From: a virus | Taxonomy: Duplodnaviria; Heunggongvirae; Uroviricota; Caudoviricetes | Length of the DNA stretch: 64,000 bases | Direction: 5' to 3' (one strand) | IMG/VR virus record: IMGVR_UViG_2724679539_000005 | Coordinates: 12,292 to 76,291 of that record | Shown here: in pieces, positions 7,061 through 48,863 of the stretch | Position numbering within the stretch: position 1 is the first letter of the stretch | Layout: every line of letters starts with the position of its first letter | Notes under the pieces: model-generated | Database searches by the model: none | What the model was told of the DNA's origin: nothing | What the model saw: the letters and a program-made list of their open reading frames with translations, nothing else | Made by a program: the position numbers and the translations under genes

Positions 7061-7077
7061 TCCTATTATCGCACCAT
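7061..7077 (+). other. att core, copy 1 (thrW 3'-end-like TCCTATTATCGCACCAT), next to the integrase 3' end
   Basis: 17-nt match to the tRNA-Thr(CGU) 3' end as recalled; the same core recurs at 48847-48863 and 62056-62072, each followed by an AAATCAATAA-like flank. Confidence 0.6.
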
Positions 7078-7090
7078 CTAAATCAATAAG

Positions 7091-8251
7091 TTACCTCGCA
7101 TTTAAGTAAACTACGTTCTCCTCTTGTGCCGTATTTGTGCCATTGCGACTTATAATCGCATCGATTTTGCTCGCGTGCTCGGTGAGATGCCCAGCTGAAA
7201 GGTGGGCGTATCTTTGAACCATTTCGAGAGTTTCCCATCCTCCCATCTCTTTAAGTGCAAGAAGAGAGACACCGGACTGAACCAGCCAGCTTGCCCAGGT
7301 ATGCCTCAGGTCATGGAAGCGGAAGTTGCTAATGCCTGCCCGCTTTAACGCTCCCTTCCATGCCTTGTTGCTGTCGGTTCTCATCTTCCTTACCGCTGCT
7401 GTTTTTGTTCCGTCGCTTCGGTAGGCAGGTTTGGTGTGGACAAATACCCATCTCTTATGGAGCCCCTGCTGTTTTCTTAATATCTGGCATGCGGTTTCGT
7501 TAAGAGGAACTCCGATCGCATTGCCAGCTTTTGTTTCATCAGGGTGCATCCATGCCATTTTCTTATCCAGATCGACCTGTGACCACTCAAGGTCTGTAAC
7601 GTTGGAACGACGAAGGCCTGTCGTGATTGCAAACATGACCACAGGGAAGAAATGAGGAGCAATTTCTGCAAACAGGCGCTTCGATTCCTCCTCTGTAAGC
7701 CATCTGATTCGTCCATTCTTAACGCGTGGTGTTGATATTTTGGGCGCCCTGTCAAGCCATCCCCATTCAACAGCCATATTGAGAATAGCGCGAAGTATTG
7801 CCAGATGCCGCGTCTTCGTTCCTTTGCTTGCCAGCTTTGGTTTATACTCCGGCACTGGCTTGCCAAGCCGCAAACACCTATCCCGGCTCATCTCCCAGTT
7901 CAGGCGATGGCGGCGGTTTTCCATCCCGTCTACCGCCTCCATTATTTTTTCTGTTGTTATGTCAGAGAGAATGGTTTCTCTGAAGTGCAACATCCAGAAC
8001 GATATAATGCTCTTGTCATCATCAATGGACTTCTTATCCGATTTCTCACGCAGCCACCGTATGCAGGCTTCCTTGAATAGCTTTTTCGGTGATTCCCCGA
8101 GATTTTTTACTCTCCACGCTTCTGCTTTCAGACGATCGTGAAGTTCTTGCGCTTGCCTCTTGTCCGATGTTTCAAGAGAGCGTCTAACTCTTGATCCATC
8201 TGGCGCGACGAAATCGCAGTGCCATGTGCCACCGCGCAGTTTGATTGACAT
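7091..8251 (-). CDS. int: tyrosine integrase (P4/CP4-type)
   Basis: C-terminal catalytic region with [13 protein letters not shown] and the conserved Tyr region (VQRYAHL); 386 aa; adjacent to the att core. Confidence 0.9.
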   Translation of the reverse strand: MSIKLRGGTWHCDFVAPDGSRVRRSLETSDKRQAQELHDRLKAEAWRVKNLGESPKKLFKEACIRWLREKSDKKSIDDDKSIISFWMLHFRETILSDITTEKIMEAVDGMENRRHRLNWEMSRDRCLRLGKPVPEYKPKLASKGTKTRHLAILRAILNMAVEWGWLDRAPKISTPRVKNGRIRWLTEEESKRLFAEIAPHFFPVVMFAITTGLRRSNVTDLEWSQVDLDKKMAWMHPDETKAGNAIGVPLNETACQILRKQQGLHKRWVFVHTKPAYRSDGTKTAAVRKMRTDSNKAWKGALKRAGISNFRFHDLRHTWASWLVQSGVSLLALKEMGGWETLEMVQRYAHLSAGHLTEHASKIDAIISRNGTNTAQEENVVYLNAR

Positions 8252-8547
8252 GCTTTAACCTCCTGCACATCAACCGCATTCACCGCGCCATTGTGTCTCA
8301 CAGACTTAAGCGCCGCAATGCAGTCTGACTTGCAAATGCGATATGGGCTTTTAGGTTTATCTGGATTTATCTTTGCGGCTTGAAGTCGTCCACTTCGTAT
8401 CCACTGCGTGATAGTGCCTTTGTCTACCTTCAGATACGACGCAGCCTCTTCACGAGTGAAGATTTCTTCTTCCACTTGGAGTCTCCATTTATTGGATTGA
8501 CATGATTGCTGTAGGTCTGGATATCTTGAGAAGCTGGCAGGCCTCAT
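8128..8547 (-). CDS. xis: excisionase / AlpA-like HTH DNA-binding protein; 3' extent uncertain
   Basis: HTH segment (EEAASYLKVDKGTITQWIRSGRL); directly upstream of int and overlapping its start in another frame. Confidence 0.55.
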   Translation of the reverse strand: MRPASFSRYPDLQQSCQSNKWRLQVEEEIFTREEAASYLKVDKGTITQWIRSGRLQAAKINPDKPKSPYRICKSDCIAALKSVRHNGAVNAVDVQEVKACQSNCAVAHGTAISSRQMDQELDALLKHRTRGKRKNFTIV

Positions 8548-8822
8548 CGAGTGTGAGGCTGTATGATTCCATGGTTACCTCTGCTTTTTGAACGCATGTC
8601 ACGTAACTTCTTAATGTGTTCTGCCGTTTCGATCTCTTCTGCTATCCGATCTGCATCAGCTTTATTCACAGGTTCAAAGTCATGATTAAATCGGAACATG
8701 CTGGCGATACATGTTCTGCCTTTTCGGATGTAGTGAACTTTGTTGTGGGTAGAACGCAGGATTTTGCAGGGAGTGCCGTGGTGATCGACGTACCAGGTGT
8801 TAGGAAAAATGATTCTGAACAT
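8544..8822 (-). CDS. hypothetical early protein (92 aa)
   Basis: ORF in the early-left operon between xis and the TraR-like gene. Confidence 0.35.
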   Translation of the reverse strand: MFRIIFPNTWYVDHHGTPCKILRSTHNKVHYIRKGRTCIASMFRFNHDFEPVNKADADRIAEEIETAEHIKKLRDMRSKSRGNHGIIQPHTR

Positions 8823-8869
8823 TTTTACACCTCAGTTGGACGATGTTGAAATTTGCTGCTTTGAGGCCA

Positions 8870-9088
8870 TCACAGTCCCCATTGTTTGTTCTTAAGTTCG
8901 ATCTCCTCCTGGCAACTTGCACAAGTCCGACAACCCTGAACAGCCAGGCGTCTTCGCTCATCTATCGGATCGCCACACTCACAACAATGAGTTGCGGATA
9001 CAGTCTGGTAGTTCAGACGACGCATTTTTATTGCTGTATTGCGCTGTAATTCTTCGATTTCTGATGCTGAATCAATGATGTCTGCCAT
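8870..9088 (-). CDS. TraR/DksA-family C4 zinc-finger protein
   Basis: 72 aa with CxxC...CxxC (CCECGDPI...CRTCASC), typical of phage TraR-like proteins. Confidence 0.7.
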   Translation of the reverse strand: MADIIDSASEIEELQRNTAIKMRRLNYQTVSATHCCECGDPIDERRRLAVQGCRTCASCQEEIELKNKQWGL

Positions 9089-9186
9089 CTTCCATTAATC
9101 CCTGAATTGTTGGTTAATACGCTTGAGGATGAATGCGAACAATAAAAAAGGAGCCTGTAGCTCCCTGATGATTTTGCTTTTCATGT

Positions 9187-9405
9187 TCACCGTTCCTTAA
9201 AGAGGCCGTTTAACATGCCGATCGCCAGGCTTAAATGAGTCGGTGTGAATCCCATCAGCGTTACCGTTTCGCGGTGCTTCTTCAGTACGCTACGGCAAAT
9301 GTCATCGACGTTTTTATCCGGAAACTGCTGTCTGGCTTTTTTGATTTCAGAATTAGCCTGACGGGCAATACTGCGAAGGGCGTTTTCTTGCTGAGGTGTC
9401 ATTGA
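9187..9405 (-). CDS. hypothetical small early protein
   Basis: ORF trimmed to an internal Met; sits between the dam and TraR-like genes. Confidence 0.3.
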   Translation of the reverse strand, partial: SMTPQQENALRSIARQANSEIKKARQQFPDKNVDDICRSVLKKHRETVTLMGFTPTHLSLAIGMLNGLFKER

Positions 9406-9478
9406 ACAAGTCCCATGTCGGCAAGCATAAGCACACAGAATATGAAGCCCGCTGCCAGAAAAATGCATTCTGTGGTTG

Positions 9479-10036
9479 TCATGCAGCCTCCCGACGGGCA
9501 AGAATCCTTGAGCCGAACGCCATCAACTCTCCACGATCAACGGTCGTAAAGTGGCAGTGTGTACGGGGATATGGGTGCCAGATAATGAGCATCGAGCCTT
9601 TATTATTTCCACTGACGGGTTTCCCGGTGAGTGGGTTAATAAATGCCAGTCGTCCTGCCGTGATGAATCTGACCTCACTGGCGGTTTGTATCGCTTCATG
9701 AAACCATCCGACAGACGTGTCAGCAGGCAATAACATTACACATCCCACACTACTGAATTTGTTTTCAGTGGCTGCCTTTTTAACAAAAGGGGAAATATTG
9801 CTGTATGGTGGATTCAGCCAGACATAACCAGAGGCATATCCCATTGCTTCAGGCCATGAAGTGGTTAATGTGTTCTGCTCCTGTGAGATAAAAAGCCGAC
9901 ATAGTCGGTTTTTTTCACTGGCTGCAGCATCAAGTTGAAAAACGAACTCTGCATTAAGCGCAGCAAAAATCTCTGGTGGTGTGCACCAGCTGTCGCGATG
10001 TTCTGCAGGAGTATTGCTTCCGGTGAAATCAGTCAT
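9479..10036 (-). CDS. phage DNA N6-adenine methyltransferase
   Basis: Motifs WCTPPEIF and NPPY (WLNPPYS) characteristic of the phage Dam methyltransferase family. Confidence 0.8.
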   Translation of the reverse strand: MTDFTGSNTPAEHRDSWCTPPEIFAALNAEFVFQLDAAASEKNRLCRLFISQEQNTLTTSWPEAMGYASGYVWLNPPYSNISPFVKKAATENKFSSVGCVMLLPADTSVGWFHEAIQTASEVRFITAGRLAFINPLTGKPVSGNNKGSMLIIWHPYPRTHCHFTTVDRGELMAFGSRILARREAA

Positions 10037-10187: not shown

Positions 10188-10868
10188 TCATCGCCATTGC
10201 TCCCCAAATACAAAACCAATTTCAGCCAGTGCCTCGTCCATTTTTTCGATGAACTCCGGCACCATCTCGTCAAAACTCGCCATGTACTTTTCATCCCGCT
10301 CAACCACGACATAATGCAGGCCTTCACGCTTCATTCGCGGGTCATAGTTGGCAAAGTACCAGGCATCTTTTCGCGTCACCCACATGCTGTACTGCACCTG
10401 GGCCATGTAAGCCGACTTTATGGCCTCGAAACCACCGAGCCGGAATTTCATGAAATCCCGGGAGGTAAACGGGCATTTCAGTTCAAGGCCGTTGCCATCA
10501 CTGCATAAACCATCTGGAGAGCAGGCGGTACGCATACTTTCGTCGCGATAGATGATCGGGGATTCAGTAACATTCACGCCGGAAGTAAACTCAAACAGGG
10601 CCCTGGCGTCGTTCTCGTACTGTTTTCCCCAGGCCAGCGCCTTAGCATTAACTTCCGGAGCCACACCGGTGCAAACCTCAGCCAGCAGGGTGTGGAAGTA
10701 GGACATTTTCATGTCAGGCCACTTCTTTCCTGAGCGGGGCTTTGCTATCACATTGTGAACTTCTGAAGCGGTGATGACGCCGAGCCGTAATTTGTGCCAT
10801 GCATCATCCCCCTGTTCGACAGCTCTCACGTCGATCCCGGTACGCTGCAGTATAATGTCCGGTGTCAT
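10188..10868 (-). CDS. YqaJ-like viral recombinase-associated exonuclease
   Basis: 226 aa; N-terminal pattern ...[17 protein letters not shown]... typical of the YqaJ family; adjacent to recT. Confidence 0.75.
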
Positions 10869-11650
10869 GCTGCCACCTTCTGCTCAGTGGCTTTCTGTTT
10901 CAGGAATCCAAGAGCTTTCACTGCTTCGGCCTGTGTCAGTTCTGACGATGCGCGAATGTCGCGGCGAAATATCTGGGAACAGAGCGGCAATAAGTCGTCA
11001 TCCCATGTTTTATCCAGGGCAATCAGCAGAGTGTTAATCTCCTGCATGGTTTCATCGTTAACCGGAGTGATGTCGCGTTCCGGCTGACGTTCTGCAGTGT
11101 ATGCGGTATTTTCGACAATGCGCTCGGCTTCATCCTTGTCATAGATACCAGCAAATCCGAAGGCCAGACGGGCACACTGAATCATGGCTTTATGCCGTAA
11201 CATCCGTTTGGGATGCGACTGCCACGGCCCCGTAATTTCTCTGCCTTCGCGGGTTTTGAATGGTTCGCGGCGGCATTCATCCATCCACTCGGTAACGCAG
11301 ATCGGATGATTGCGGTCCTTGCGGTAAATCCGGCATGTACAGGATTCGTTGTCCTGCTCAAAGTCCATGCCATCAAACTGCTGGTTTTCATTGATGATGC
11401 GGGACCAGCCATCAACGCCCACCACCGGAACGATGCCATTCTGCTTATCAGGAAAGGCGTAAATTTCTTTCGTCCATGGATTAAGGCCGTACTGGTTGGC
11501 AACGATCAGTAATGCGATGAACTGCGCATCGCTGGCATCACCTTTAAATGCCGTCTGGCGAAGAGTGGTGATCAGTTCCTGTGGGTCGACAGAATCCATG
11601 CCGACACGTTCAGCCAGCTTCCCTGCCAGCGTTGCGAGTGCTGTACTCAT
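10865..11650 (-). CDS. recT: RecT-family single-strand annealing recombinase
   Basis: 261 aa with RecT-like core; overlaps the start of the downstream exonuclease gene (coupling). Confidence 0.8.
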
Positions 11651-11655
11651 CCGTT

Positions 11656-11952
11656 TTATACCTCTGAATCAATATCAACCTGGTGGTGAGCAATGGTTTC
11701 AACCATGTACTGGATGTGTTCTGCCATGCGCTCCTGAAACTCAACATCGTCATCAAACGCACGGGTAATGGCTTTTTTGCTGGCCCCGTGGCGTTGCAAA
11801 TGATCGATGCATAGCGATTCAAACAGGTGCTGGGGCAGGCCTTTTTCCATGTCGTCTGCCAGTTCTGCCTCTTTCTCTTCACGGGCGATCTGCTGGTAGT
11901 GACGCGCCCAGCTCTGAGCCTCAAGACGATCCTGAATGTAATAAGCGTTCAT
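11656..11952 (-). CDS. gam: Gam-like host-nuclease (RecBCD) inhibitor
   Basis: 98 aa, [21 protein letters not shown]...[10 protein letters not shown]; near-identical to lambda Gam (short form) as recalled. Confidence 0.9.
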
Positions 11953-12027: not shown

Positions 12028-12438
12028 TTAGTGATTCAGGCCGTTACCGCGTCCGTCGAGAAAAACTTCCACGAGCAAATCACGGGTATAAGTGCGCTCG
12101 ATGCCGCGATGCAGATAAAGCCGTCCGCGTAAATTAGCTGATGCAGTCCAGGTACCATCTTTGTGTTTGACCAGCATTCCTGGCATGACCGCACCTCGAT
12201 TAACGGTCTGCGTTCCATAATGTTGATGAACCATAAAAACTCCTGCCCGTAAGCTGGGCTGCTGAACATATAGAGACTTCTGCGCGTATTCAGGCGGTGG
12301 ATGGCCGCCGGTTGTCATAACTAAGCCGCCTCGTTGAAGCGACTGAGGTATGAGGTGTTGAGTTGATTTCAGCTGGTCACACCGACGTTCACGCGTCCGT
12401 TTCACCCCTCGCACTCCCCGGAGCCTGCCGAAATTCAA
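12028..12438 (-). CDS. hypothetical early-left protein with Arg-rich N-terminus (possible N-like antiterminator or Kil-position gene)
   Basis: First ORF downstream of the putative OL/PL; N-terminal [10 protein letters not shown] motif resembles an arginine-rich RNA-binding motif. Assignment not established. Confidence 0.3.
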
Positions 12439-12499
12439 GCTGCGGATCTAAGCGGTCATCGCAACGGTGAATCAGGCGGTTGCCGTATCGTTGTGTTGT

Positions 12500-12640
12500 T
12501 GCGACATGGTAATAATAGCTATTGCTATTGGTGGTATCAATACTTATTGCTATTGATTGATGTGTTTTGATATTAACTGTTTGATAGCAAAAAGAATTAA
12601 TTTTGTGACTTGCATCGCATAGCGATAACTGAAGGGAGGT
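12500..12640 (-). promoter_or_regulatory. putative OL/PL operator-promoter region
   Basis: Repeated TTGCTATTGATTG-like half-sites (12516-12558) that match copies in the cI-cro intergenic region (15197-15233). Confidence 0.5.
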
Positions 12641-12679
12641 TGTGGTGGTTTTTCGAACGGTTTGTGTGATGAGGGGAGG

Positions 12680-12707
12680 GGACAAAAGAAAACCCGGCAC
12701 GGTGGCC
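12680..12707 (-). terminator. rho-independent terminator closing the cI-kinase operon (minus strand)
   Basis: On the minus strand: GC stem CCCGGC/GCCGGG followed by a T-run (TTTTCTTTT). Confidence 0.5.
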
Positions 12708-12710
12708 GGG

Positions 12711-12874
12711 CTAGATCTTAAAGTATTTATCTTTTAGAGATGTAGATGCAAAATTTTTTGCCTTTGAAAATTTTTTGTCATCAGAAGAGCTTATGAACTC
12801 ATCTTTTTTGTAGGGAACCGCTAATGCTGCATCACGTCTGCGAGGCAGCTTACTTACTTCCTCGCACTTTTTCA
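12711..12874 (-). CDS. hypothetical small basic protein (54 aa) downstream of the kinase
   Basis: ATG 4 bp after the kinase stop; ends just before the terminator; below the 60-aa track cutoff. Confidence 0.3.
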
Positions 12875-12877
12875 TGA

Positions 12878-13924
12878 TCAGTTATCCTTTAATAACCTAT
12901 ACAGTTTTGTAGGGGTACATCCTGAGGATATTGTTAAGTTCGTAGCACGCCTTTTCCGCCCACCATCGTATAAACGAAAACCAGTAGTAGACGAATTTTC
13001 TGCGTCAAAAACTATAGACAGTATAACGTCCCCAGACTTTTTTTGCCATTCATATGTGCCGTTAGTTGGTTTTGTCATCTGTAGACGCCAGTCAAGAACG
13101 CCATCACTTATAGCTGAGAGATCGTTTAGTACGTCTAGTACGGATTGATATCTTTCATTTGGATCTACATGAATGCATTTGTTTACTATTGTTATCAATT
13201 TTTTATGTATGTGGGAAGGATACTCTTTTAATGGATAGGAGCCATTAATTATCGACTCTCTGAGTTGTTCAATCGTTCTAAATGCAGATCTTTCTCTTTC
13301 AAAATTATCATATCCAACACACATTCTATATATGGTTAATCCTGCCTGATATATGTCATATGTGAAATTATAATCATTTGTTGATAAAGAAAAATATTCC
13401 GGTGGCACATGAAAATGATATCCAAACTCAGGCGCAGCTCTCGATTCCTCATTGACTAACTGAGACAATCCAAAGTCAGATAGCATGGCCTCATTTCTGT
13501 TTGATATCATGATGTTATTAGGTTTTATATCAAAATGCATAAGACCTTTTGAGTGTATATGATAAAGCCCACTTAAAAATTGAATAGAATACCGTATTAT
13601 CTCCCTGCTCGTAAGATTAATCTTTTTTATTAATTGGTTTAGCGAACCATTATGATAAAATGGCATGGCTATATAGATATTGCTCTCACATTGAGCAGCA
13701 TACTGAACTTGCACAATATTTGGATGTGCATGTTTATAGAGAAGCCTTGCTTCATTAAAGTAGTCGTCGTGGTTAGTGTTTTCTTTTTTTTCTATTTCTT
13801 TAATCACCAAGTCATGAGCTAGGTGTCTGTCATGAGCCAGATATACTTTTGAAAAACAACCCTGTTCTTCTAGATCACGAATCCATTCGAATGCTACATC
13901 AGCTCTTTTGTATGGAGTCAGCAT
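12878..13924 (-). CDS. eukaryotic-like Ser/Thr protein kinase (348 aa)
   Basis: Kinase motifs: VIK (beta3 Lys), HFDIKPNN (catalytic loop), DFG, PPE; very AT-rich. Confidence 0.85.
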   Translation of the reverse strand: MLTPYKRADVAFEWIRDLEEQGCFSKVYLAHDRHLAHDLVIKEIEKKENTNHDDYFNEARLLYKHAHPNIVQVQYAAQCESNIYIAMPFYHNGSLNQLIKKINLTSREIIRYSIQFLSGLYHIHSKGLMHFDIKPNNIMISNRNEAMLSDFGLSQLVNEESRAAPEFGYHFHVPPEYFSLSTNDYNFTYDIYQAGLTIYRMCVGYDNFERERSAFRTIEQLRESIINGSYPLKEYPSHIHKKLITIVNKCIHVDPNERYQSVLDVLNDLSAISDGVLDWRLQMTKPTNGTYEWQKKSGDVILSIVFDAENSSTTGFRLYDGGRKRRATNLTISSGCTPTKLYRLLKDN

Positions 13925-14379
13925 CCCCTTACCTCCGCAGATAGTGCAGCCAAAACAGCTTCATTTGTTTCAGTTGTAAAACCAGAATTATCGATTCCAT
14001 TTATATTACGGTGTGACTTCAATATTTCTTTATACTCGATCTCTGTTAGGTTCAATGATGACTTCATACCAGATTTTCTAATGGTGTAATATCTTCTTAC
14101 ATCACTGCTTGAAAATGCTTCTTGAATAACAGCTTCTATATAAAGGCGGTCAATGCTAAGATTATCAGAGTTTGATTCAGTAACGCGTATAGCAGCTAAT
14201 TCAACATTATATAAATTAAGAATGTCGAGGATGTTATTTCGCACATACTTTAATTTTTCTGGTGTGTCTAAGGTCGAAGGTATTTTAATAACATCAACAC
14301 ATTTGAGTGCAGACTCATCAGTGCAATATACAACAAAAGATGTAACTTTGGGCGCCGCCCTAACACCTAGTATTCTCAT
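13918..14379 (-). CDS. hypothetical protein (153 aa) co-transcribed upstream of the kinase; N-terminus resembles a RuvC/YqgF-like RNase H fold with the catalytic Asp replaced
   Basis: MRILGVRAAPKVTSFVV resembles the RuvC N-terminus (ILGIDPG..TG); overlaps the kinase start by 7 nt. Confidence 0.5.
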   Translation of the reverse strand: MRILGVRAAPKVTSFVVYCTDESALKCVDVIKIPSTLDTPEKLKYVRNNILDILNLYNVELAAIRVTESNSDNLSIDRLYIEAVIQEAFSSSDVRRYYTIRKSGMKSSLNLTEIEYKEILKSHRNINGIDNSGFTTETNEAVLAALSAEVRGC

Positions 14380-14459: not shown

Positions 14460-15188
14460 TTATCCATGTTTCCTGTATGTTTGCGGCATGCTCCCAATAA
14501 CTTTCCCGAAGATAAACACCCGGTTCATCTCGTCTTTCTCGATTGGGTCCCACGGTGAGTAGCTCTTGTTATCAGAGATAACCAGCAGTTTATCCTTCAT
14601 CATTTGCAGGCGCTTAACATGGGCTGTGTCGTCATACAGAAACGCATAGATACCATCACCGTCGAAAGATTTAACAGTGATATCAACGAACAGAAGATCA
14701 CCTGGTTCGATCGTTCCTGACATGCTGTCACCGCGTACGTTAATGATGCGGATATTTTCTGCCTTCCTGCCATCGAACATGTGACGAGCATCGTCAAACG
14801 AGTACTCAACCGAGCGTAGAACTTCTACAAACTCACGGTTGATGACTCCCGGCCCGGCACTCACTTCTATATCAAGAACGTCAATCTTGAAGTATTTGGG
14901 ATGGTTGGCAGCAGGCTTCCCTGATTGTTGACCGTCATTTCTCATCGGGCCTATGCCTGATGAGAGCCACTCTGTTCGAACACCCAATGCATTAGCTATT
15001 TCAACAATTTTTGTTGAGCCGCGTGCGTTGCCGCTTGTCAGTCTCCAGATTGTGGGTTGAGCTACGCCAGACGCCTTTGCAAGAGCGCCTTGAGACATTC
15101 CAGATTGTTCCATCGCTAGGTTTAAGCGATCAGCAAGAGTTTCTTTTTTCATAAGTTTTAATTTATACGCTTGCGTATTGATGGTCAA
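14460..15188 (-). CDS. cI: CI-type prophage repressor (HTH plus S24 LexA-like peptidase domain)
   Basis: N-terminal HTH (MSQGALAKASGVAQPTIWRL), C-terminal VRGDSM...GDLLFVD...KRL autocleavage domain; true start may be Met13 (15152). Confidence 0.85.
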   Translation of the reverse strand: MTINTQAYKLKLMKKETLADRLNLAMEQSGMSQGALAKASGVAQPTIWRLTSGNARGSTKIVEIANALGVRTEWLSSGIGPMRNDGQQSGKPAANHPKYFKIDVLDIEVSAGPGVINREFVEVLRSVEYSFDDARHMFDGRKAENIRIINVRGDSMSGTIEPGDLLFVDITVKSFDGDGIYAFLYDDTAHVKRLQMMKDKLLVISDNKSYSPWDPIEKDEMNRVFIFGKVIGSMPQTYRKHG

Positions 15189-15256: not shown

Positions 15257-15490
15257 TTGATAATGACAAATCAAACCATTCAACTCGCAATCAGTATTAC
15301 AGGTAGTCAAAAACGACTGGCAGATCTATGCGGTGTAGCCCAGCCCACTGTTTGGCGTTGGCTACACGGTGGCGGAATTGATGCCCGCTATGTAATGAAA
15401 ATTGTCTCAGCCACTGGTGGAAAGATTAAACCAGCAGATATTCGTCCCGACCTTGCACCATTGTTTAACGCGAGTAATTCTGCCGCCTAA
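15257..15490 (+). CDS. cro: Cro/YdaS-like HTH regulator
   Basis: 77 aa, HTH (SQKRLADLCGVAQPTVWRWL); divergent from cI. Confidence 0.7.
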   Translation: MIMTNQTIQLAISITGSQKRLADLCGVAQPTVWRWLHGGGIDARYVMKIVSATGGKIKPADIRPDLAPLFNASNSAA

Positions 15491-16060: not shown

Positions 16061-16146
16061 CAGGTTCAGAAATGGCGAAAGCCGGTCTGCGGGAACAGAG
16101 CCGACTTTCAGGTGCAAATCGTAACGCACTCATTGCGGGAGGAATT

Positions 16147-18377: not shown

Positions 18378-18428
18378 AGTAATTCAGTGGCAACAATAGC
18401 ACTCATTTGTGAGTGCTATTGAAATTTA

Positions 18429-21861: not shown

Positions 21862-21884
21862 TTTTCAGCACATTTGATTTCCAA

Positions 21885-36263: not shown

Positions 36264-36264
36264 T

Positions 36265-36921: not shown

Positions 36922-36931
36922 GGTCATCACA

Positions 36932-38093: not shown

Positions 38094-38130
38094 CCTGCTG
38101 CGGCAGGTTTTTTTATGGCTGGAGAAAGAC

Positions 38131-40103: not shown

Positions 40104-40149
40104 TTATTCCCGTTCTTTAACTACCTGACGGCCTGCGGGCCGTTTTTTA

Positions 40150-40461
40150 ATGGAGGTGATTATGCCTTTTCCCGGTGAAACCCGCGTTATCCGATTGTTT
40201 TCCCCTGTCACTCTGGAGGGTGGCGTGATCCTTGAGGAAGTGACGATGCGTGAACCGCTGGTGCGCGATCGTATTGCTCATGCCAAAGATCGTGGCAATG
40301 AAGAAGAAAAAGAAGCCCGGATGATTGCGCTGTTGTGCAACCTCAGTGAAAAGGACATCTGGCAACTGACGGCTGCAGACTATGCGCAACTGCTGGATGC
40401 CTTCAATGTTTTTATGCTGCCGCCCGCGAAGCGTCCGAAAGACACCTCCTCCGGGCGATAA
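40150..40461 (+). CDS. tail assembly chaperone (gpE/gpG-like)
   Basis: Small acidic protein between tube and tape measure; the -1 frame stays open to about 40590 (possible frameshift extension). Confidence 0.5.
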   Translation: MEVIMPFPGETRVIRLFSPVTLEGGVILEEVTMREPLVRDRIAHAKDRGNEEEKEARMIALLCNLSEKDIWQLTAADYAQLLDAFNVFMLPPAKRPKDTSSGR

Positions 40462-40563
40462 AACTCCTTGGACGGCGACTGCATTTTCCTATGTCGGACT
40501 ATCTGGATATGCCGTTCAGCACTTTCTCTGATTTTCTTACTGATGAACTGGAGACGATGAACC

Positions 40564-42474
40564 GTGGGCGGAATAAGCCAGAATCTTAAAGCCGTTATCA
40601 CGTTTGGCGGTAACCTGGACAGTTCATGGAAGCGCTCGGCTGACGGTTTACAAAAGAGCCTGAATGATGTCGGGAAACGTTCAGAACGTCTGACAAAGGA
40701 GCAGGCAAAACTGGCTGCTGAAATTAAACGCGCGAAACTGGCAGGTGAAAGTCTGGGGAATTTGAAACGCCGTTATAGCGAAGTTTCCAGAGAGATCCGC
40801 AAGGCAGAGGCAGAGCAGCAGAAACTGAATGTCCAGATGCAAAAAGCACAGCGGATTGAGGCATTCAAAGGTGCCGGGAAGGGATTGTTCCGGCGTGGTC
40901 TGGGGATTGCCGGTCAGGTCGGAGGTATGTTCGGTACCGGACTGGCATTTGGTGGCGGTGGTGTGGTGGCCTCAGCGCTCGGCACGCTTATCGCCCCGGC
41001 GGCAACGAATGCTGAAACTGCCACCCGCGCCAGTGTGGCGAAAAGCTACGGTGTGGATGTCGCCACCTTCAGTGCGTGGGACTCCCTGGCCCGTCAGTAC
41101 GATATGAATGCCGAAAATATTGGTGACCTTTTTGAGGAGTATCTGCACAAAGCGGGTGAGTATAAGCAAAATGGGAAACAGGGCTCTCTGCAGGATGCCT
41201 TTGAAACGCTGGGGTTTAAAGAGGGCGATTTTGCCGGGCTCAGTGATATGGCGCAGTTCGATAAAATTGTTGAGCGGGCGCTCAGTCTCCAGGATGAGGC
41301 AAAAGCATCTTTTGCGCTGGACTCTCTTTTTGGCGGGGAGGCCAGTAAGCTGCTGATGCTGATCAAACAGTCGGGCAGAAGCTACCGGGAGCTGATGGAC
41401 GAGCAGCGTCGTTATAACCTGGTGACCCGGGAGGGGGCAGAAGGTGCGATTGCCGGTAATCAGGCTATCAGTAATCTGCGCACGGTGTTCTCTTCGGCGG
41501 TGGCGGAGATTTCCGGGCAACTGGGTAATGAGCTGGCACCTGATATCCGGCGATTAACGGACGATTTGGCAGACTGGTTTAAAGGGGGCGGCGTCAGGCG
41601 TATTGTCACTTTCCTGCGTAACGATCTTTATCCCGGGGTGTTGAGCTTTGGTCAGGGCGTGGTTTTTGTTGGCAAAATTGTCTATGCGCTGGCTAAAAAA
41701 CTGGCCTGGCTGTTACCGGATGAGCGTGAAGATCAGCGTGATGTGCTGAAGGCGCTCGCCAGAAGTGGTTCCGTTGACCTTGCCAGACTGACCGCGCAGC
41801 GAAGTGGACAGGGGGAATGGTTTGAACAGCAGTTAACAGCGCATCCGGACTTACCGGAAAAGGTGAAACGGTCCTGGACATCGACACGTGGTTATTTTGG
41901 TTTTGATTCGGATGATGAGGCATTTAACCAGTCTGTTGATCACTATCTGACCCCGGAAAGCCACGAATCCTTATTAAACTGGAATACCGCTTTACAGCGT
42001 AACCAGCGGGAGTCTGCATCGTTTCCCCCGGTAACAACGGAAAATAACACAGTTATTCATACCGCTCCGATGACGACAGAAAACAACACATTTATGCATT
42101 ACGTTCCGGCAATGACGGAGAACAATACCGAAGCCTGGAATAAAGATGTGTTACCTCCCGTCTTTCCTGCTGTTCTACCGGAATTCACATTTTCTTCACG
42201 ACAACAACAAGCCGCGGATCCGCGTTCTGCCAGAGAGCAGGAGGACAAAACAGGGGGCTACTGGGAAAATCTGCTGCAGAAAATGGACGCACTGGATAAA
42301 CAGCCGCCGTCCAGGCAGGTTATCGATAACCGGAAGTTTGATTATCACTTCGAAATTAATGCAGCTCCCGGGCAGGATGAAAAAGCCATTGCCGATGAAC
42401 TGACCACGGTCACCCGAAATAATCCGGCTTTTAACGGGGACAACCGTCTGACGGATGGAGGACTGGTCTGGTGA
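40564..42474 (+). CDS. tail tape measure protein
   Basis: 636 aa, coiled-coil N-terminus, Gly-rich hydrophobic segment, internal TTENNT repeats; GTG start. Confidence 0.85.
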   Translation: MGGISQNLKAVITFGGNLDSSWKRSADGLQKSLNDVGKRSERLTKEQAKLAAEIKRAKLAGESLGNLKRRYSEVSREIRKAEAEQQKLNVQMQKAQRIEAFKGAGKGLFRRGLGIAGQVGGMFGTGLAFGGGGVVASALGTLIAPAATNAETATRASVAKSYGVDVATFSAWDSLARQYDMNAENIGDLFEEYLHKAGEYKQNGKQGSLQDAFETLGFKEGDFAGLSDMAQFDKIVERALSLQDEAKASFALDSLFGGEASKLLMLIKQSGRSYRELMDEQRRYNLVTREGAEGAIAGNQAISNLRTVFSSAVAEISGQLGNELAPDIRRLTDDLADWFKGGGVRRIVTFLRNDLYPGVLSFGQGVVFVGKIVYALAKKLAWLLPDEREDQRDVLKALARSGSVDLARLTAQRSGQGEWFEQQLTAHPDLPEKVKRSWTSTRGYFGFDSDDEAFNQSVDHYLTPESHESLLNWNTALQRNQRESASFPPVTTENNTVIHTAPMTTENNTFMHYVPAMTENNTEAWNKDVLPPVFPAVLPEFTFSSRQQQAADPRSAREQEDKTGGYWENLLQKMDALDKQPPSRQVIDNRKFDYHFEINAAPGQDEKAIADELTTVTRNNPAFNGDNRLTDGGLVW

Positions 42475-42941
42475 GTAATTTCATGTCTTTTATTGATGAA
42501 TTTGGTCAGCAACAGGCTGAAAACCTGCGTTCGGCAGGAGCCGCCCGCGTGATGATGATGCTGGGAGATTTTGCTTTTTCGATTGATACGACAGCCTATA
42601 ACCAGCTGACCCGCGAAGCAACCTGGCGCTGGAGCGAACAGGAGCGCATTGGTAAGCAGGATCTTCTCCAGTACACCGGAAAGCCGGGGCGTACCGTCAG
42701 ACTTGAAGGCGAATCCCATGCCTTTTTTCGAAAAGGTGTTGGCCCCGTCAATGACCTGTTTGCTCTTGCCGACCAGGCGAAGCCACTGCAGCTGGTCAGT
42801 GGAGAAGGGGATGTTCTGGGATGGTGGGTGGTAACTGACTTTACTGACACCACTAACCGGTTCCTGCCGGGAGGTGGTCACCGTAATAAAAACTGGACAA
42901 TGACACTGAAACACTATGCCGACGATATATCAAACCCGTGA
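42471..42941 (+). CDS. gpU-like tail protein
   Basis: 156 aa directly after the tape measure. Confidence 0.5.
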   Translation: MSNFMSFIDEFGQQQAENLRSAGAARVMMMLGDFAFSIDTTAYNQLTREATWRWSEQERIGKQDLLQYTGKPGRTVRLEGESHAFFRKGVGPVNDLFALADQAKPLQLVSGEGDVLGWWVVTDFTDTTNRFLPGGGHRNKNWTMTLKHYADDISNP

Positions 42942-43131
42942 CGGTGATGTGCTGGATGCGATTTGCGCCGCGCACTATGGCAGCGAAAATCTCGCTGACA
43001 CGATAATCCAGGTTCTGGAGGCAAATCCCGGGCTGGCTGATCGTGGCGCGGTATATCCCTCCGGTCTGTCTGTTATTCTGCCGGAACGGGTGATCCCGGT
43101 TGTGGAGTCTGCTTTCAGCTTATGGGATTAA
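42916..43131 (+). CDS. gpX-like tail protein
   Basis: 71 aa between the gpU-like and gpD-like genes. Confidence 0.55.
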   Translation: MPTIYQTRDGDVLDAICAAHYGSENLADTIIQVLEANPGLADRGAVYPSGLSVILPERVIPVVESAFSLWD

Positions 43132-44251
43132 TATGGTTTCTCAGACGATGACTCCTGAATATGCGCCAGCATTCCGCATAAAGGCAGAAGGGAAAGATAT
43201 TACCCGCATACTTGAGCAATGCCTTTCTGAACTGACGCTGACAGATTACGGTGGCGCGACCGCCAGAGCCGATGAACTGAAAATTACCCTGCTTTCTGAA
43301 ACGCTGACACTTCCGCCCAGAGGGGCGCGACTACAGGTTGCGCTGGGATTTAATGAGCAGCTTGTCGATAAAGGCTGGTTTGTTGTCAGCGGAGTTGCCA
43401 GCAGTGGGCCACCGAGGCGCATTGAAATTTATGCCACCGCAGCGCCCATGAATGCACGGAAGCAACCCGGTGACGTCACCAGTCAGAAAACACGAAGCTG
43501 GGATAACATTCGTCTGGAGGATGTGGTGAAAACCGTGGCCACCGATAATGGCCTGATCCCCAGAGTCGCTGCCGTGCTGAAAGATATTCACATTAACCAC
43601 ATCGACCAGGTGGCTGAATCTGATGCTAACCTGCTGTCCCGGCTTGCCCGCATCTACAACGCGGTGAGTAAACCTTCCGGTGGTTACTGGCTTTTTCTGC
43701 CGCAGGGGGCGACAGCGACCGTTTCCGGTAAACAGATTGACAGTATCACCATTACGCCTGCAGACGTGACAACGTGGTCATACAGTGAAGGTGAGCGGGG
43801 GAGTTCCACGGGTAAGGTCACGGAAAGTGGGGGTAAAGCAAAAGAGAAAATCGGGGTTCGCTATTACGATGAAGTGGATGGCAGGACAAAAACCGCAGCG
43901 GTCGAACATGACGGACCGGCAATGACCAACCCGTATACCCAGTCAGAAAAGGATACGGCAGAGAAGCAGGCGAAAGCACGAAAAACACAGGTAAGACGGA
44001 ATGAGCAGAAAATGACGCTCACCGGCCCCTGCCGACCACAGCATATTCCCCTGACGGCAGAAGCAGGGGTGGCAACCTCAGGATTTGGTACCCGGGAAGA
44101 CAGAGCCTGGGTGGTTGAGTCGCTGGTCTTTTCACTGACCGCTGCCGGATTCAGTTATACCTGCAATCTGGTGGTGGATATTCACAAACCACAAAAATCC
44201 GCAAAAAAATCGAAGCAACAGGATAAAACTGGTCCGGCTTACTTCGGTTAA
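43100..44251 (+). CDS. gpD-like late control / tail protein
   Basis: About 370-380 aa in the P2 gpD position. Confidence 0.65.
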   Translation: MWSLLSAYGINMVSQTMTPEYAPAFRIKAEGKDITRILEQCLSELTLTDYGGATARADELKITLLSETLTLPPRGARLQVALGFNEQLVDKGWFVVSGVASSGPPRRIEIYATAAPMNARKQPGDVTSQKTRSWDNIRLEDVVKTVATDNGLIPRVAAVLKDIHINHIDQVAESDANLLSRLARIYNAVSKPSGGYWLFLPQGATATVSGKQIDSITITPADVTTWSYSEGERGSSTGKVTESGGKAKEKIGVRYYDEVDGRTKTAAVEHDGPAMTNPYTQSEKDTAEKQAKARKTQVRRNEQKMTLTGPCRPQHIPLTAEAGVATSGFGTREDRAWVVESLVFSLTAAGFSYTCNLVVDIHKPQKSAKKSKQQDKTGPAYFG

Positions 44252-44291
44252 TCCATCGCGCCATCCGGCGCTTTTGTAACGGAAAATCATC

Positions 44292-44645
44292 ATGAACGGT
44301 GTAAACAGCCGGACAGGCAAACGTCTGTCTGGCGTGGCGCATTTGCGCCAGTCTGTCCGGGACATTCTGACCACGCCCGTCGGGAGTCGTGTGCTGATCC
44401 GTGACTATGGCAGTGAACTGTTTTCGTTGCTGGATAACCCACGGGATGACCTGACGCGCCTGCGGATAATCGCCGCCTCAGCGACTGCACTGGCTCGCTG
44501 GGAGCCGCGTTTAAAGGTGACGCGGGTGATGGTCTCCTTCCCGGCGGGCGAATCCGGTTGTGTTCTGGATATCGAAGGGATCAACAAAGAAGACGGCTTA
44601 CCCGTCAGAACAGGAGAAATAACGCTAAATGCCCAACAGTTATGA
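44292..44645 (+). CDS. gpW / gp25-like baseplate wedge protein
   Basis: 117 aa; the pattern SVRDILTTPVGSRVLIRDYGSEL is typical of the gp25/GPW family. Confidence 0.7.
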   Translation: MNGVNSRTGKRLSGVAHLRQSVRDILTTPVGSRVLIRDYGSELFSLLDNPRDDLTRLRIIAASATALARWEPRLKVTRVMVSFPAGESGCVLDIEGINKEDGLPVRTGEITLNAQQL

Positions 44646-45549
44646 TGTGATCAATCTGTCTGAACTCGCTGTTCCTGATGCGCTTGTAGTGCCGGATGCC
44701 ACAGAGATTTTCTCCCGATGGCTGGCACGTCTGCAGGAGCTGGATCCGCAGTTTGATGCGCTGGTAGAGTCCGATCCGGCGTTTAAACAGGGAGAGGTGA
44801 ATGCATATCAGCTGACGCTGGCCTTTCAGCGTGTCAATGATGCAGTGCGGGCAGTATTTCTTGCCAGCGCCAGAGGCGCAGACCTTGATCAGATTGGCGC
44901 TGCCTTCAATGTTAAACGCCAGGTTATCAGACCGGGTGATCCGGATGCCGTTCCCCCCGTCGAAGTGGAACTGGAAGATGACGGCGCATTTCGTGAACGT
45001 ATTCAGTTGTCCTGGGCACAGTTAAATACGGCGGGTGCCCGCAACGCTTACCGCTTCCATGCGAAATCGGCGGATACCGATGTGCTGGATGCTGAAGCTT
45101 ATGGCCCCGAAACACACAGCCGCCCGGGGTGTGTTGATGTGTATGTGCTTTCCCGTACGGGAGACGGAACAGCAGCTGCACCACTGCTGGATAAAGTTAA
45201 CAGCACACTGAATGCCGATGAAATCCGTCCATTGACAGACTACGTGACGGTGAAGAGCGCCACTATCAAAAATTATGCCATCACGGCTGAACTGGAGATC
45301 CCGGACGGCCCGGACGCCACGACAGTTCTGAACAATGCCATTGAAGCCTTGCAGTCCTACACCATGCTGTCTCACCGGATTAACACCGTGGTGCCGTTAT
45401 CTGCCATCTATGCCGCTTTACAGCAATCCGGTGTGGTTCGCGTCAGACTGATCTCCCCCGTGGCTGATCTGGAAGCCGAAGCCGGAAAAGCACCGTGGTG
45501 TACTGCCATCAACGTCACCCGCAGGGAGGTAAGCAGCCATGACGGATAA
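44629..45549 (+). CDS. baseplate J-like protein
   Basis: 306 aa following gpW. Confidence 0.7.
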   Translation: MPNSYDVINLSELAVPDALVVPDATEIFSRWLARLQELDPQFDALVESDPAFKQGEVNAYQLTLAFQRVNDAVRAVFLASARGADLDQIGAAFNVKRQVIRPGDPDAVPPVEVELEDDGAFRERIQLSWAQLNTAGARNAYRFHAKSADTDVLDAEAYGPETHSRPGCVDVYVLSRTGDGTAAAPLLDKVNSTLNADEIRPLTDYVTVKSATIKNYAITAELEIPDGPDATTVLNNAIEALQSYTMLSHRINTVVPLSAIYAALQQSGVVRVRLISPVADLEAEAGKAPWCTAINVTRREVSSHDG

Positions 45550-46102
45550 ATTTCGCTCCCTGCTGCCGCCGGGCGCATTTCATGAAGAACGGGTGCAGGA
45601 GCAGGCGACGACAGAACACATCATCGCACTGGATACCAACATGGTGCGTAAGGTGAAAGATGCGGCCAGCTGCCCGGCACATCTTTTACCGTGGCTTGCG
45701 TGGGAACATGCCGTCGATTTCTGGGATGACAGCTGGACAGAGACACAAAAGCGCCAGGTGATTAAGGACGCCGCTTACGTGCATCAGCACCGGGGAACGG
45801 CGGGTGCGGTCAGGCGTTCTCTGGGGGCGGTAAACCTGCCGACCACTGTCGTGGAGTGGTGGCAGGATTCACCGCAGGCTGCACCCTACACATTCCGGAT
45901 TGAAGTTCACAGCAGTCAGGGCGTCAGCGATGCACTGTATCACCAGATTCGTCAGCTTACTGACCGGGCTAAAAACCTGCGCAGTCATCTGAGCAAAATA
46001 GATGTTCTGGCGAATATCGGGATGGATGGCGCTTTTTATATTTCAGGTGCGACGACAGCACATATCGATGTGGATATTTTTGCCGGGGAGTCTCATGGCT
46101 GA
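45539..46102 (+). CDS. gpI-like baseplate/tail protein
   Basis: 187 aa between the J-like and tail-fibre genes. Confidence 0.6.
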
Positions 46103-47792
46103 ATATTATTCAATTATTACTAACCGGGGAAAAGAACTGGAGGCGGAAGCGCTTGCCAGTGGTAGCCAGATTATTCTGACACAGTTTGTGGTTGGCGACA
46201 GTAATGGCAAACCGCTGAAACCCGATCCGGCACAAACGCAGCTTGTTAATGAAACCTACCGTGGAGATATTGCAGAGCTGGTGGTATCACCGGAACAGCC
46301 GACACAGCTCATGGCCAGAATTGTGCTGCCAACGGGAACGGGGGGGTTTACAGTCCGCGAAGTGGGACTGATGACTGATGGGGGGGAATTGTATGCCGTG
46401 GCGAACTGCCCGGCGATTGACAAACCGGTTGGCGGTGTCAGCGTCAATATGCAGTTCCGGCTTGCTGTATCTGACACCTCAAACATCACGTTAAATGTGG
46501 CAACGGGAGACGGACTTTTTCTGCGCATTGACCAGAACCTGAAGGAAATCAAAGCGCGCGGAGCTGGCGCGCAAAAAGAATCCCGCGAGTCTCTTGGTGT
46601 TCTGGATGCCACGACTAAGCAAAAAGGTCTGGTGCAACTGAACAGTGCGGTGAACAGCACCAGTGAGACACAGGCAGCGACATCAAAGGCGGTTAAGACA
46701 GCATATGACCTTGCTGATGGCAAATACACTGCACAGGACGCCACCACGGCACGAAAAGGGATTGTTCAGTTAAGCAGCGCCACTAACAGTGATTCTGAAA
46801 CGCTTGCCGCGACTCCGAAAGCGGTGAAAGCTGCCAATGACAATGCAAACGGGCGTGTGCCCTCAGGACGTAAGGTTAATGGCAAACCACTGAACAATGA
46901 TGTCAATGTTACATCGCAGGATATTTTTAACGGTCAGAGTATTGAGATTGGTGCAAACCAGAATCTGGATAATTACAAAACGCCGGGGCTGTACCATCAG
47001 CCACTGAATGCCAATACAAGCGCAGTGCTGAAATACCCTGAGAATCTTTCAGGTACTCTGGTTGTGCTTAAAAATGCCGGAATAACACAAATTTACTATG
47101 TGTATAACACATCCAGAAGCTATACCCGCAGCCAGTACTCAACGGGTGGCTGGACACCATGGACGCCGCAGGATTCATTTCCGGTAGGTGCGGCGATTCC
47201 GTGGCCTTCTGATTCAGTACCTACAGGCTATGCCATTATGCAGGGGCAGACTTTTGACAAGGCAGCCTATCCCCTGCTTGCAGGAGCTTATCCGTCAGGA
47301 GTGATTCCCGATATGCGGGGCTGGACAATCAAGGGCAAACCCGCCAGTGGCCGCGCTGTATTGTCTCAGGAACAGGACGGTATTAAATCGCATACTCACA
47401 GCGCCAGTGCGTCAAATACGGATTTAGGAACGAAAACGACAAGTTCATTTGATTACGGCACGAAGACAGTCAGCACGTTTAACCATGGTACCAAAACCAC
47501 CAATACAACAGGTAATCATACCCATACAATTTACAGGGGTAATGCCAGAACCAACAGTGAAACCGGTTATACGGGTTTTGATAATCCATCATTTAATGGA
47601 ACATCAAGTGCAGCAGGGAACCATGCTCATACTGTTGACATTGGTCAACATAACCACACCGTAGGTATTGGTGCCCATGCACACACTGTGGCATTGGGGG
47701 CGCACGGACACACCATCACGGTCAATGCTACGGGGAATGCAGAGAACACCGTAAAAAACGTTGCATATAACTATATTGTGAGGCTGGCATAA
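46098..47792 (+). CDS. tail fibre protein with His-rich HxH repeat tip
   Basis: Conserved N-terminus ([12 protein letters not shown]...), variable C-terminus with repeated HTH/HAH/HxH motifs. Confidence 0.8.
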
Positions 47793-48376
47793 TGACTTTC
47801 AGAATGAGTGCAGAGGCACAAACTATTCGTGTATTTAATTTACTGGATGGAAGCAATGAATTTATTGGCGAAAGCGATGCATATATTCCACCGTATACAG
47901 GTCTGCCTGCAAACAGTACAGATATTGCACCTCCAGATATTCCAGCTGGCTATGCTGCCGTTTTCAATGCAGACGAAATGAAATGGCATTTGACAGAGGA
48001 CCATCGTGGGAAAACTGTCTATGAAACAAAAACAGGAGCAGCCATTTATATTTCTGAACTTGGTGCATTACCTCCTGACGTGACAACAATTTCCCCGACT
48101 GGCAATTATCAGAAATGGAACGGGAATGCGTGGGTCGATGATGTAGATGCGGAGCGTGTGGCACTTATCAACGAAGCCGAATCGCAGAAGAAAGAGCTGC
48201 TCAGACATGCAAGTGAAATCATCGCCACCTTACAGGACGCTGTTGATTTAGATATGGCGACCGATGAGGAAAAATTACGTCTGAATGAATGGAAAAAATA
48301 TCGAGTTTTATTGAATCGTATCCGACCGGAGAATGCTCCGGATATCGAGTGGCCGGTAATCCCTGTCATGGAATAA
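47792..48376 (+). CDS. tail fibre assembly protein (Tfa)
   Basis: 194 aa directly after the fibre gene, with a Tfa-like C-terminus. Confidence 0.7.
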
Positions 48377-48817
48377 TCGTTTTGTGATATGCCGCAGACA
48401 CGTAGCATGCAATAACGTGCTGCGGCTGGCTGGTGAACTTCCGATAGTGCGAGTATTGAATGATTTCCAGCCGTTACCGATTTTACGTGTTAATACTTCC
48501 ACATCATTTAAACGGTTTGTAAGTTCCTGGTAGGTAATTCTCCCGTTAACATGCCTATGGCGCCGTTTGGTTTCAGGCTTATCTTTTTTTGCGTAATAAA
48601 AGGTGAGACAAAAATGAGACACACAAAGCTTTGTACTGGATTGCAAGGCTTTGCGCTCTTCTGTGGATGTGTGGCTACATGTTTGAAGATCGTTGTGCCG
48701 TATTTGTGACATACACATGACAACATCATGCATCAACTTTCTGTTTGTGCCATCAACTATAGCTTAGTGAATGCGGTTAATGCTTGCTAAAACAGATAGT
48801 TATGATTGGTGCTACAG

Positions 48818-48863
48818 ATTCGTAATGCGAAGGTCGTAGGTTCGACTCCTATTATCGCACCAT
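48818..48863 (+). other. att copy 2: 45-nt remnant of the tRNA-Thr (thrW-like) 3' end; not a complete tRNA
   Basis: ATTCGTAATGCGAAGGTCGTAGGTTCGACTCCTATTATCG-CACCA matches the thrW 3' end from the anticodon loop onward, with one deletion; no acceptor or D arm upstream. Confidence 0.8.

Follow-up and report, generated by a model that had tools for sequence, protein, structure and literature searches.

The IMG/VR virus record IMGVR_UViG_2724679539_000005 (Duplodnaviria; Heunggongvirae; Uroviricota; Caudoviricetes) raises the question of whether a lambda-like early region and a contractile tail found side by side belong to one intact phage. We analyzed 64,000 nucleotides of this record (positions 12,292 to 76,291), referred to below as the window. 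A first-pass annotation, made from the letters alone, had placed a mosaic prophage at 7061-48863 of the window and described it as apparently intact, with lambda-type early genes, phage 21-type lysis genes, a P2/Mu-type tail, and a resemblance to SfV-like phages. By means of a repeat search and a gene map, we found that positions 7061-48864 constitute a single 41.8-kb prophage, which very likely represents a complete temperate phage genome of lambdoid organization and mosaic composition, with a contractile tail, and which is probably functional.

The 58 candidate genes were translated and compared by tblastn with lambda, SfV, Chris1, P2, Mu, and Gifsy-2, and they were also searched against Pfam, PHROGs, and PADLOC. 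The coordinates of the features are collected in Table 1.

Boundaries and integrity of the prophage

The prophage is enclosed by an exact 18-bp direct repeat, TCCTATTATCGCACCATC, whose copies at 7061-7078 and 48847-48864 are the only ones in the window (chance expectation, 0.02 matches); allowing up to 3 mismatches revealed no further copy in the window. The interval proposed earlier thus coincides with a single integrated element from end to end. The left copy sits directly outside the stop codon of the integrase gene, which belongs to the only int-xis pair, located at the left end of the prophage. On the right, positions 48818-48863 correspond to the last 46 bases of thrW (tRNA-Thr) minus one G, and this 46-bp end of thrW is the published attP/attL/attR core (att, attachment site) of phages SfI, SfII, SfV, SfX, and P22 (PMC3636060).

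No frameshift and no interrupted essential gene were found, in agreement with the earlier impression of an intact element. The gene lengths equal those of Citrobacter phage Chris1 and of five other assemblies, in which the late genes are 99% identical, and the tail gene lengths also equal those of a prophage remnant in strain SW071611. Since one of the five assemblies (L020) has a split tape-measure gene, the copy in this prophage is the intact form. In addition, the small genes Rz1, NinE, YlcG, and Bor are all present. From this completeness we infer that the prophage may excise, be induced, and form virions; its inducibility is plausible, which makes it a candidate inducible myovirus whose sole isolated close relative is a Citrobacter phage.

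Probable insertion at a secondary thrW core

The flanks of the window are 99.5-99.7% identical to E. coli chromosomes, and the setting is the E. coli thrW island region, where the prophage is placed between 18-bp and 45-bp thrW-derived repeats within a tandem array of islands. ARAGORN found no tRNA in the 64-kb window and hence no intact thrW. Use of thrW, which the first-pass annotation cited for SfV-like phages, holds here for the thrW-derived att core and the thrW-type integrase and fails for the site itself, which is a secondary att copy.

Int-mediated insertion into a short att copy at the end of the neighboring island (island A, to the left) appears to be the simplest history of the locus. 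A tyrosine integrase of the P22/SfV type would have acted through the thrW-derived att core, with the att copy at the right end of island A, and not thrW proper, as its target. Such an event would produce an attL composed of the island end, the 18 bp, and the int arm, and an attR in which the phage arm is followed by 28 bp of thrW homology from the phage itself, the 18 bp, and the old downstream DNA. Both predicted structures match the observed junctions exactly. In strains Ec1120 and MS15236, island A ends in an identical 17-bp core, G deletion included, and is followed by a decayed integrase 3' end with yagP/paoD in one of these strains and by the vat island in the other. In strain 20KM2222, an intact thrW is followed directly by the DNA that lies to the right of 48864 here. 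Both att cores that flank the prophage are without the same G of thrW and read TATCGCACCA instead of TATCGGCACCA. The locus may serve as an example of how a phage of this kind can enter an array of islands in tandem through a secondary thrW att copy.

The integrase itself is widespread. An identical Int protein adjoins intact thrW-proA in many genomes, and it occurs in 1941 collection blocks, where diverse lambdoid and P22-like early regions accompany it beside thrW-proA. One of these loci (L012) has both a 97-98% identical early region and the identical Int at the canonical site, with intact thrW.

Early region, immunity, and replication genes

The gene order int-xis-rec-cI-cro-cII-replication-nin-Q-lysis-head-tail is that of lambda (NC_001416), except for the missing N. 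At the amino acid (aa) level, Exo, Bet, Gam, and P are 97-99.6% identical to their lambda counterparts (98.2%, 99.6%, 96.9%, and 97.9%, respectively), followed by Ren (88.2%) and the hybrid O (65%), which is lambda-like in its C-terminal part. These values support the first-pass description of Gam, P, and Ren as nearly identical to lambda. None of the lambda int/att, N, cIII, cI/cro/cII, rexAB, Q, S/R, head, or non-contractile tail genes is found here, and the large terminase subunit (TerL) and the portal are only 21-24% identical to those of lambda. Of the label "lambda-type early," then, exo-bet-gam, P, and ren stand, and the rest requires revision: the immunity is not that of lambda, N is missing, and the nin/Q region is DLP12-like.

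The divergent cI/cro region has the lambdoid layout, with a repressor composed of HTH_3 and Peptidase_S24 domains on the minus strand and a YdaS-family Cro on the plus strand (PF01381, PF00717, PF15943, and PF06254 across the immunity region). With its LexA-like (S24) repressor, this immunity region, which is not that of lambda, is predicted to respond to SOS induction. Since cI carries the Ala-Gly, Ser, and Lys motifs of self-cleaving repressors, whose cleavage is stimulated by RecA, SOS induction would be the expected trigger.

Next to cI, the position of lambda rexAB is occupied by stk and an open reading frame (ORF) for a RuvC-like protein (phrog_2361 and phrog_3875). The kinase is eukaryote-like and matches the PADLOC defense families PD-T4-6 and mad6, and Stk of 933W has been reported to exclude HK97 (PMC3681748). 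Farther downstream, the layout of isrK, C4 RNA, and antirepressor is that of the Gifsy-1 isrK-orf45-anrP locus and resembles P1 immI, an analogy that suggests an RNA-controlled antirepressor as a second induction switch. The Q-type late antiterminator (PF06530, E = 1.9e-49) lies upstream of the lysis genes.

To the left of the immunity region, a PL promoter (TTGATA-17-TATTAT) was found within a 475-bp non-coding PL/OL region, with a terminator-like hairpin just upstream of it (~12690-12712). The PL leader is 95-97% identical to that of the isolated plaque-forming phages 4A7, Perceval, and PhiR30_1, which are equally N-less. LLS, an accepted lambdoid phage, is also without N (PMC12315714).

Lysis, head, and tail modules

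The description of the lysis genes as a pinholin plus signal-anchor-release (SAR) endolysin set was borne out. The holin belongs to PF04971 and has a visible MKSM dual-start motif. The endolysin aligns end to end with RrrD (4zpu, E = 4e-108; ~96% identical in the printed alignment) and with the lysozyme of phage 21 (3hde, E = 2e-107), and the alignment spans residues 1-30, i.e., the N-terminal SAR segment. This is the cassette of phage 21 and DLP12 (S21, R21/RrrD, Rz/Rz1) in a different phage background, with no notable differences.

The head is of the Gifsy-2 type, which corrects the earlier reading. Amino acid identities to Gifsy-2 reach 49% for the small terminase subunit (TerS), 70% for TerL (PF05876/PF20454), 56% for the portal (PF05136), 47% for the capsid fusion protein, and 38% for the decoration protein. 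The claim of a single protease-capsid fusion ORF proved correct, as both Pfam domains lie in one reading frame. Gifsy-2 is described in the literature as likewise having fused prohead protease and coat genes, and this head type is common to mEp213 and LLS (as cited in PMC12315714). In Gifsy-2, mEp213, mEp460, and LLS, however, the head is joined to a lambda-like non-contractile tail, whereas here it is joined to a P2-type contractile tail.

Within the tail cluster, the Pfam search identified Phage_base_V, sheath, tube FII, TAC_7 (gpE), GpU, Tail_X, GPD, gp25/W, Baseplate_J, Tail_P2_I, a tail-collar fiber, and Caudo_TAP. By tblastn, 11 P2 tail proteins (V, FI, FII, U, X, D, W, J, I, H, and G) were matched at 25-49% aa identity, and the tape measure (T) was identified by its position and by matches to PHROG tape-measure families. 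The -1 frame has no stop between the end of E and the start of T, shows a run of T's at the overlap, and forms a candidate E' extension. The fiber has a P2 H-like N-terminus and a lambda Stf-like C-terminus (60% identical to lambda), and Tfa is 66% identical to that of lambda. In P2, V and F form separate operons and X lies elsewhere, whereas here V-FI-FII-E-T-U-X-D-W-J-I-H-G are contiguous. With Mu, tblastn matched only fiber and fiber-assembly pieces and the endolysin, with no match to sheath, tube, N, P, or gp45-48. Hence, of the "P2/Mu-type" tail proposed before, the named genes are present and P2-type, and the Mu part was dropped. The tape-measure protein (40564-42474) belongs to no Pfam family and repeats a short TTENNT-type motif (VTTENNTVIHTAPMTTENNTFMHYVPAMTENNTEAW) three times in tandem in its C-terminal third.

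Relatives and mosaicism

Citrobacter phage Chris1 (ON041214) is the closest isolated phage for the late genes and, among 50,697 phage records, the only one that combines this head with this tail. It too has lambdoid order and is collinear with the prophage from terS to gpI and the fiber N-terminus (76-93% aa and ~80% nucleotide identity). TerS, TerL, the W-like protein, the portal, and the fusion protein are 80-92% identical between the two, the head-tail attachment protein 63%, and the decoration protein 44%; for the fusion protein, LLS is the second-best phage match (53%). Chris1 differs in its integrase, recombination, immunity, replication (P), and lysis genes. It also has an ars operon and an invertible fiber segment, whereas the fiber tip and Tfa of the prophage are lambda-like.

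The early half has other relatives. The Bievrevirus-type coliphages 4A7, Lambda_4C10, and Perceval, together with PhiR30_1 and IdasGreatGrand, are ~95-96% identical in nucleotide sequence, in pieces, over much of 8.5-29 kb. What they share with the prophage covers the early-left operon with its N-less leader, O-P, the nin genes, Q, and lysis genes of the 21 type; the integrases, cargo inserts, and virion genes of these phages are different, with no match in the late region.

Among bacterial genomes, assembly GCA_000968905.2 (contig JZWQ02000012.1) matches positions 19622-41739 at 100% identity, and 59 collection blocks encode exactly this TerL protein. In loci L017, L018, and L020-L022, the late module (99% nucleotide identity, identical TerL) is joined upstream of terS to several distinct early/lysis regions, with joints at ~27.7, 28.7, or 28.95 kb of the window; one of the joined partners is an SfV-like early region (Dam, LexA_DNA_bind, RusA, KilA-N, DUF968, Q, N6_N4 methylase, and holin_3_1). 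The occurrence of a late module with 100% identical TerL on several early/lysis regions illustrates modular exchange and no new principle. Among complete RefSeq E. coli genomes, none has 80% or more of the late half (best, 81% identity over 47%). A mosaic joint considered at ~39.9 kb, where the match to SW071611 is 98%, was rejected as a recombination joint, since the match is to an IS1-truncated prophage remnant at ssrA (L026).

The genome may accordingly be read as a series of modules: lambda Red and lambda P/ren, a hybrid O, an immunity region unlike that of lambda, a Stk kinase cassette of the 933W type with a putative role in exclusion, nin and Q genes like those of DLP12, a pinholin/SAR endolysin/spanin set of the phage 21 type, a Gifsy-2-type head, and a P2-type tail with a lambda Stf/Tfa-like fiber tip. 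Judged by sequence, every module is of a known, circulating type, because the same modules recur in other phages and loci. The prophage is a new member of the mosaic lambdoid phages; it is ordinary and represents no new kind. Its value lies in being an example, with exact boundaries, of a lambdoid phage built from lambda, 933W, DLP12/21, Gifsy-2, and P2 modules.

Alternative explanations

Several observations weigh against a complete and functional phage. The 1-bp deletion shared by both att copies is not predicted by a single crossover with a canonical attP, which would leave one canonical copy. A search near terS for the lambda/mEp213-type cos sequence GGGCGGCGNNCT gave no match. No N ORF was found in 12235-12878, and a put RNA of the HK022 type was sought in the PL leader as a substitute for N and is unsupported: there is no similarity to HK022, and the leader folds no better than shuffled sequences (z = -0.13). 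Furthermore, one assembly and one sequencing run (SRR1916804) are the only places where the exact combination, as traced by its Tfa protein, turned up, and population data give no evidence that this particular mosaic has moved.

The prophage might on these grounds be defective, i.e., a cryptic or domesticated element that looks complete and is unable to excise or grow because of a degenerate secondary att, the lack of an early antiterminator, or inactivating missense changes. In addition to the missing N, this reading is favored by the absence of a functional thrW next to the prophage, by a left core of only 18 bp, and by the deletion in both cores. Related integrase remnants at the same junctions in other strains show that elements at this locus decay, and the IS1-truncated tail-module remnant in SW071611 points in the same direction. 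However, all modules are full-length, and the two cores are identical to each other, as Int/Xis excision needs. The N-less leader is also carried by isolated phages, and the late module is 99% conserved across genomic backgrounds, as expected under selection. We consider a defective prophage unlikely.

A complete phage also has to be set against two other readings. The GC content rises in a step from ~41-50% (early and cargo genes) to 52-58% (late genes), which, together with closest relatives that differ between the two halves, could indicate that a lambdoid early-region remnant lies next to an independent P2-like prophage or tailocin. Yet there is one integrase and one att repeat pair only, and no second element or second att pair was found inside 7061-48864. 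Outside the tail genes, tblastn with P2 gave only a weak integrase match and no P2 head (Q, P, O, N, M, L), lysis, A/B replication, immunity, or ogr gene. The late module opens with its own terminase and head genes right after lysis, as in lambdoid phages, and the same join between lysis and terS recurs in the single phage genome of Chris1 and in further genomes. Two adjacent elements are thus highly improbable, and the first-pass view is the one retained, in which one mosaic prophage combines lambda-type genes for recombination and replication, 21-type lysis, a fusion head gene, and a contractile tail. Membership in the SfV/SfI group of Shigella serotype-converting myoviruses has next to no probability. 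The prophage shares with SfV the att core (45/46 bases), Int (55%), Xis (41%), and the architecture of lambdoid order with a contractile tail, and to that extent "SfV-like" was apt. In contrast, SfV has an HK97-type head with separate protease and capsid, Mu-type tail genes, and gtrABC next to att, none of which is detectable here. With tblastn, no SfV head or tail-body protein was matched, the sole structural match being the C-terminal part of the tail fiber assembly protein. Neither gtrABC nor oac adjoins att, as there is no family match between Tfa (48376) and att (48818) and no tblastn match to SfV gtr. On the basis of tblastn, SfV/SfI membership was rejected for the structural modules.

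Cargo genes and a conserved 472-aa protein

The low-GC insert between ren and the nin genes encodes a conserved 472-aa protein with a weak match to PADLOC HEC-07 (E = 1e-9) and a PHROG match confined to its last 57 residues. We found 75 homologs of near-constant length in Enterobacterales, Pseudomonas, and Caulobacter, all unnamed, with 26 residues invariant across them. The homologs occur as single genes in prophages, in a Dickeya integrative and conjugative element, and in a Pseudomonas island, where HipA-like and UmuDC genes lie beside the homolog, and the protein behaves as mobile-element cargo.

An AlphaFold2 model of the protein is confident, with a predicted local distance difference test score of 83.5. 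Foldseek of the model against the Protein Data Bank returned nothing below E = 0.01, and fold searches gave only generic START-like and thioredoxin-like matches. By eye, the last 68 aa bear a faint resemblance to HicA, with His435 invariant in a G-K-H-x-K context. Only 4 of 22 members have HicA_toxin as their best-scoring Pfam family, a weak match (best E = 0.005), and a profile search with the C-terminal domain found no solved HicA structure. We propose that the protein begins with START-like and thioredoxin-like domains, continues as a long coiled coil, and ends in a small HicA-like nuclease domain. A role in defense is a tentative hypothesis. It is doubtful that the protein is a new single-gene anti-phage (abortive-infection) factor whose carrier prophage is a functional representative of an unclassified lineage joining a Gifsy-2-type head to a P2-type tail. 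The Stk kinase, the 472-aa protein, and the isrK/C4-antirepressor module are cargo that may act in phage exclusion and merit a test of that role.

Further cargo genes (24078-26835 and 28226-28519) flank the late promoter region; the DUF523/DUF1722 protein among them belongs to the 2-thiouracil desulfurase family.

Table 1. Features of the 41.8-kb prophage and of the adjoining elements, in window coordinates
Feature	Coordinates	Strand	Details
attL, left att core	7061-7078	+	18 bp of thrW 3' end, 1-bp G deletion; joins island A to int arm
Tyrosine integrase, P22/SfV thrW type	7091-8251	-	PF00589
Excisionase (HTH_17)	8128-8547	-	PF12728; 115 or 139 aa by gene caller (gene calls in L012 and L014)
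Early-left accessory genes	8544-10036	-	DUF4222, TraR/DksA zinc finger, small ORF, methyltransferase; PF13973, PF01258, PF05869
Dam-type N6-adenine methyltransferase	9479-10036	-	PADLOC orphan methyltransferase
Lambda Red module exo, bet, gam	10188-11952	-	YqaJ, RecT, Gam Pfam matches
kil (KilR-type septation inhibitor)	12028-12234	-	phrog_294; PF27398 KilR call in L012
Non-coding PL/OL region and leader	12235-12710	-	~190-nucleotide leader; no credible ORF
Stk Ser/Thr(/Tyr) kinase	12878-13924	-	Pkinase E = 2.5e-46; 96.8% to stk of 933W-type Shiga toxin phages
RuvC-like protein	13918-14379	-	In cassette with stk, rex position
cI, helix-turn-helix + S24 peptidase	14460-15188	-	Immunity region
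cro, YdaS family	15257-15490	+	Immunity region
cII-position gene, YdaT family	15515-16060	+	Immunity region
Replication genes O, P and ren	16057-18058	+	O hybrid
Low-GC (35%) insert between ren and nin genes	18123-19847		84-aa ORF and 472-aa ORF
84-aa ORF	18123-18377	+	
Conserved 472-aa protein	18429-19847	-	No Pfam family
isrK small RNA	20279-20351	+	Rfam RF01394, 58.7 bits
C4 antisense RNA	20376-20461	+	Rfam RF01695, 74.8 bits
Bro-N/P22_AR_C antirepressor	20508-21116	+	PF02498, PF10548
nin region and Q	21352-23923	+	phrog_1779 ORF, YbcN/NinB, NinE, YbcO, RusA, YlcG, Q; gene calls in identical locus L019
Q-to-lysis cargo	24078-26835		Blc-type lipocalin (-), DUF523/DUF1722 (YbgA-like), AraC-family regulator; PF08212, PF04463 + PF08349, PF12833
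S21-family pinholin	27024-27239	+	PF04971 "P21 holin S," E = 1.4e-33; 71 aa
SAR endolysin	27239-27736	+	165 aa; full-length to RrrD and R21 structures
Rz	27733-28194	+	PF03245; 87.6% to lambda Rz
Rz1, embedded in Rz	27950-28135	+	Lipobox lipoprotein ORF
bor-like lipoprotein gene	28226-28519	-	Translation; PF06291 call in identical locus L019; after Rz
Gifsy-2-type packaging and head module	29100-35907	+	TerS (DUF1441), TerL (GpA), 71-aa W-like, lambda-family portal, protease-capsid fusion, cement/decoration protein
ClpP protease-major capsid fusion	33464-35506	+	Single ORF: CLP_protease + Phage_capsid_4 (PF00574 + PF25209)
Head-tail connector genes	35907-37483	+	Phage_attach; Neck1/tail completion (phrog_27); phrog_1072; Pfam, PHROG; gene calls in L019
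P2-type contractile tail, one cluster	37476-48376	+	V, FI sheath, FII tube, E, tape measure, U, X, D, W, J, I, fiber, Tfa
attR, right att site	48818-48864	+	45/46 bases of SfV/P22-type thrW att core; last 18 bp = left repeat
PerC-family regulator	5080-5361		Island A
pRiA4b ORF-3-like protein	5965-6507		Island A
Lambda-E-like capsid gene	56626-57663		48865-62052 element
Dit-like tail protein	59819-60532		48865-62052 element
DUF6538-type integrase	60614-61978	-	Far end of 48865-62052 element

Neighboring elements in the array

Positions 1-7060 of the window are the right end of island A, which is common to strains Ec1120 and MS15236 at 99.5-99.7% identity and also encodes large proteins without a Pfam match. 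Since DUF5906 primase-like and "DNA ejection protein" genes lie upstream in these two strains, island A resembles a P4 or satellite element. On the other side, the element between the right att copy and a third thrW core (48865-62052) could be a satellite or a prophage remnant; it also encodes an HTH_36 protein, and in strain 20KM2222 it is this element that comes immediately after thrW. The third core, at 62034-62052, has the canonical GG. Immediately after it, at 62053-62400, lies the truncated 3'-end remnant of a P22/SfV-type integrase, which marks another unit, and the window therefore represents a tandem array of at least 4 units.

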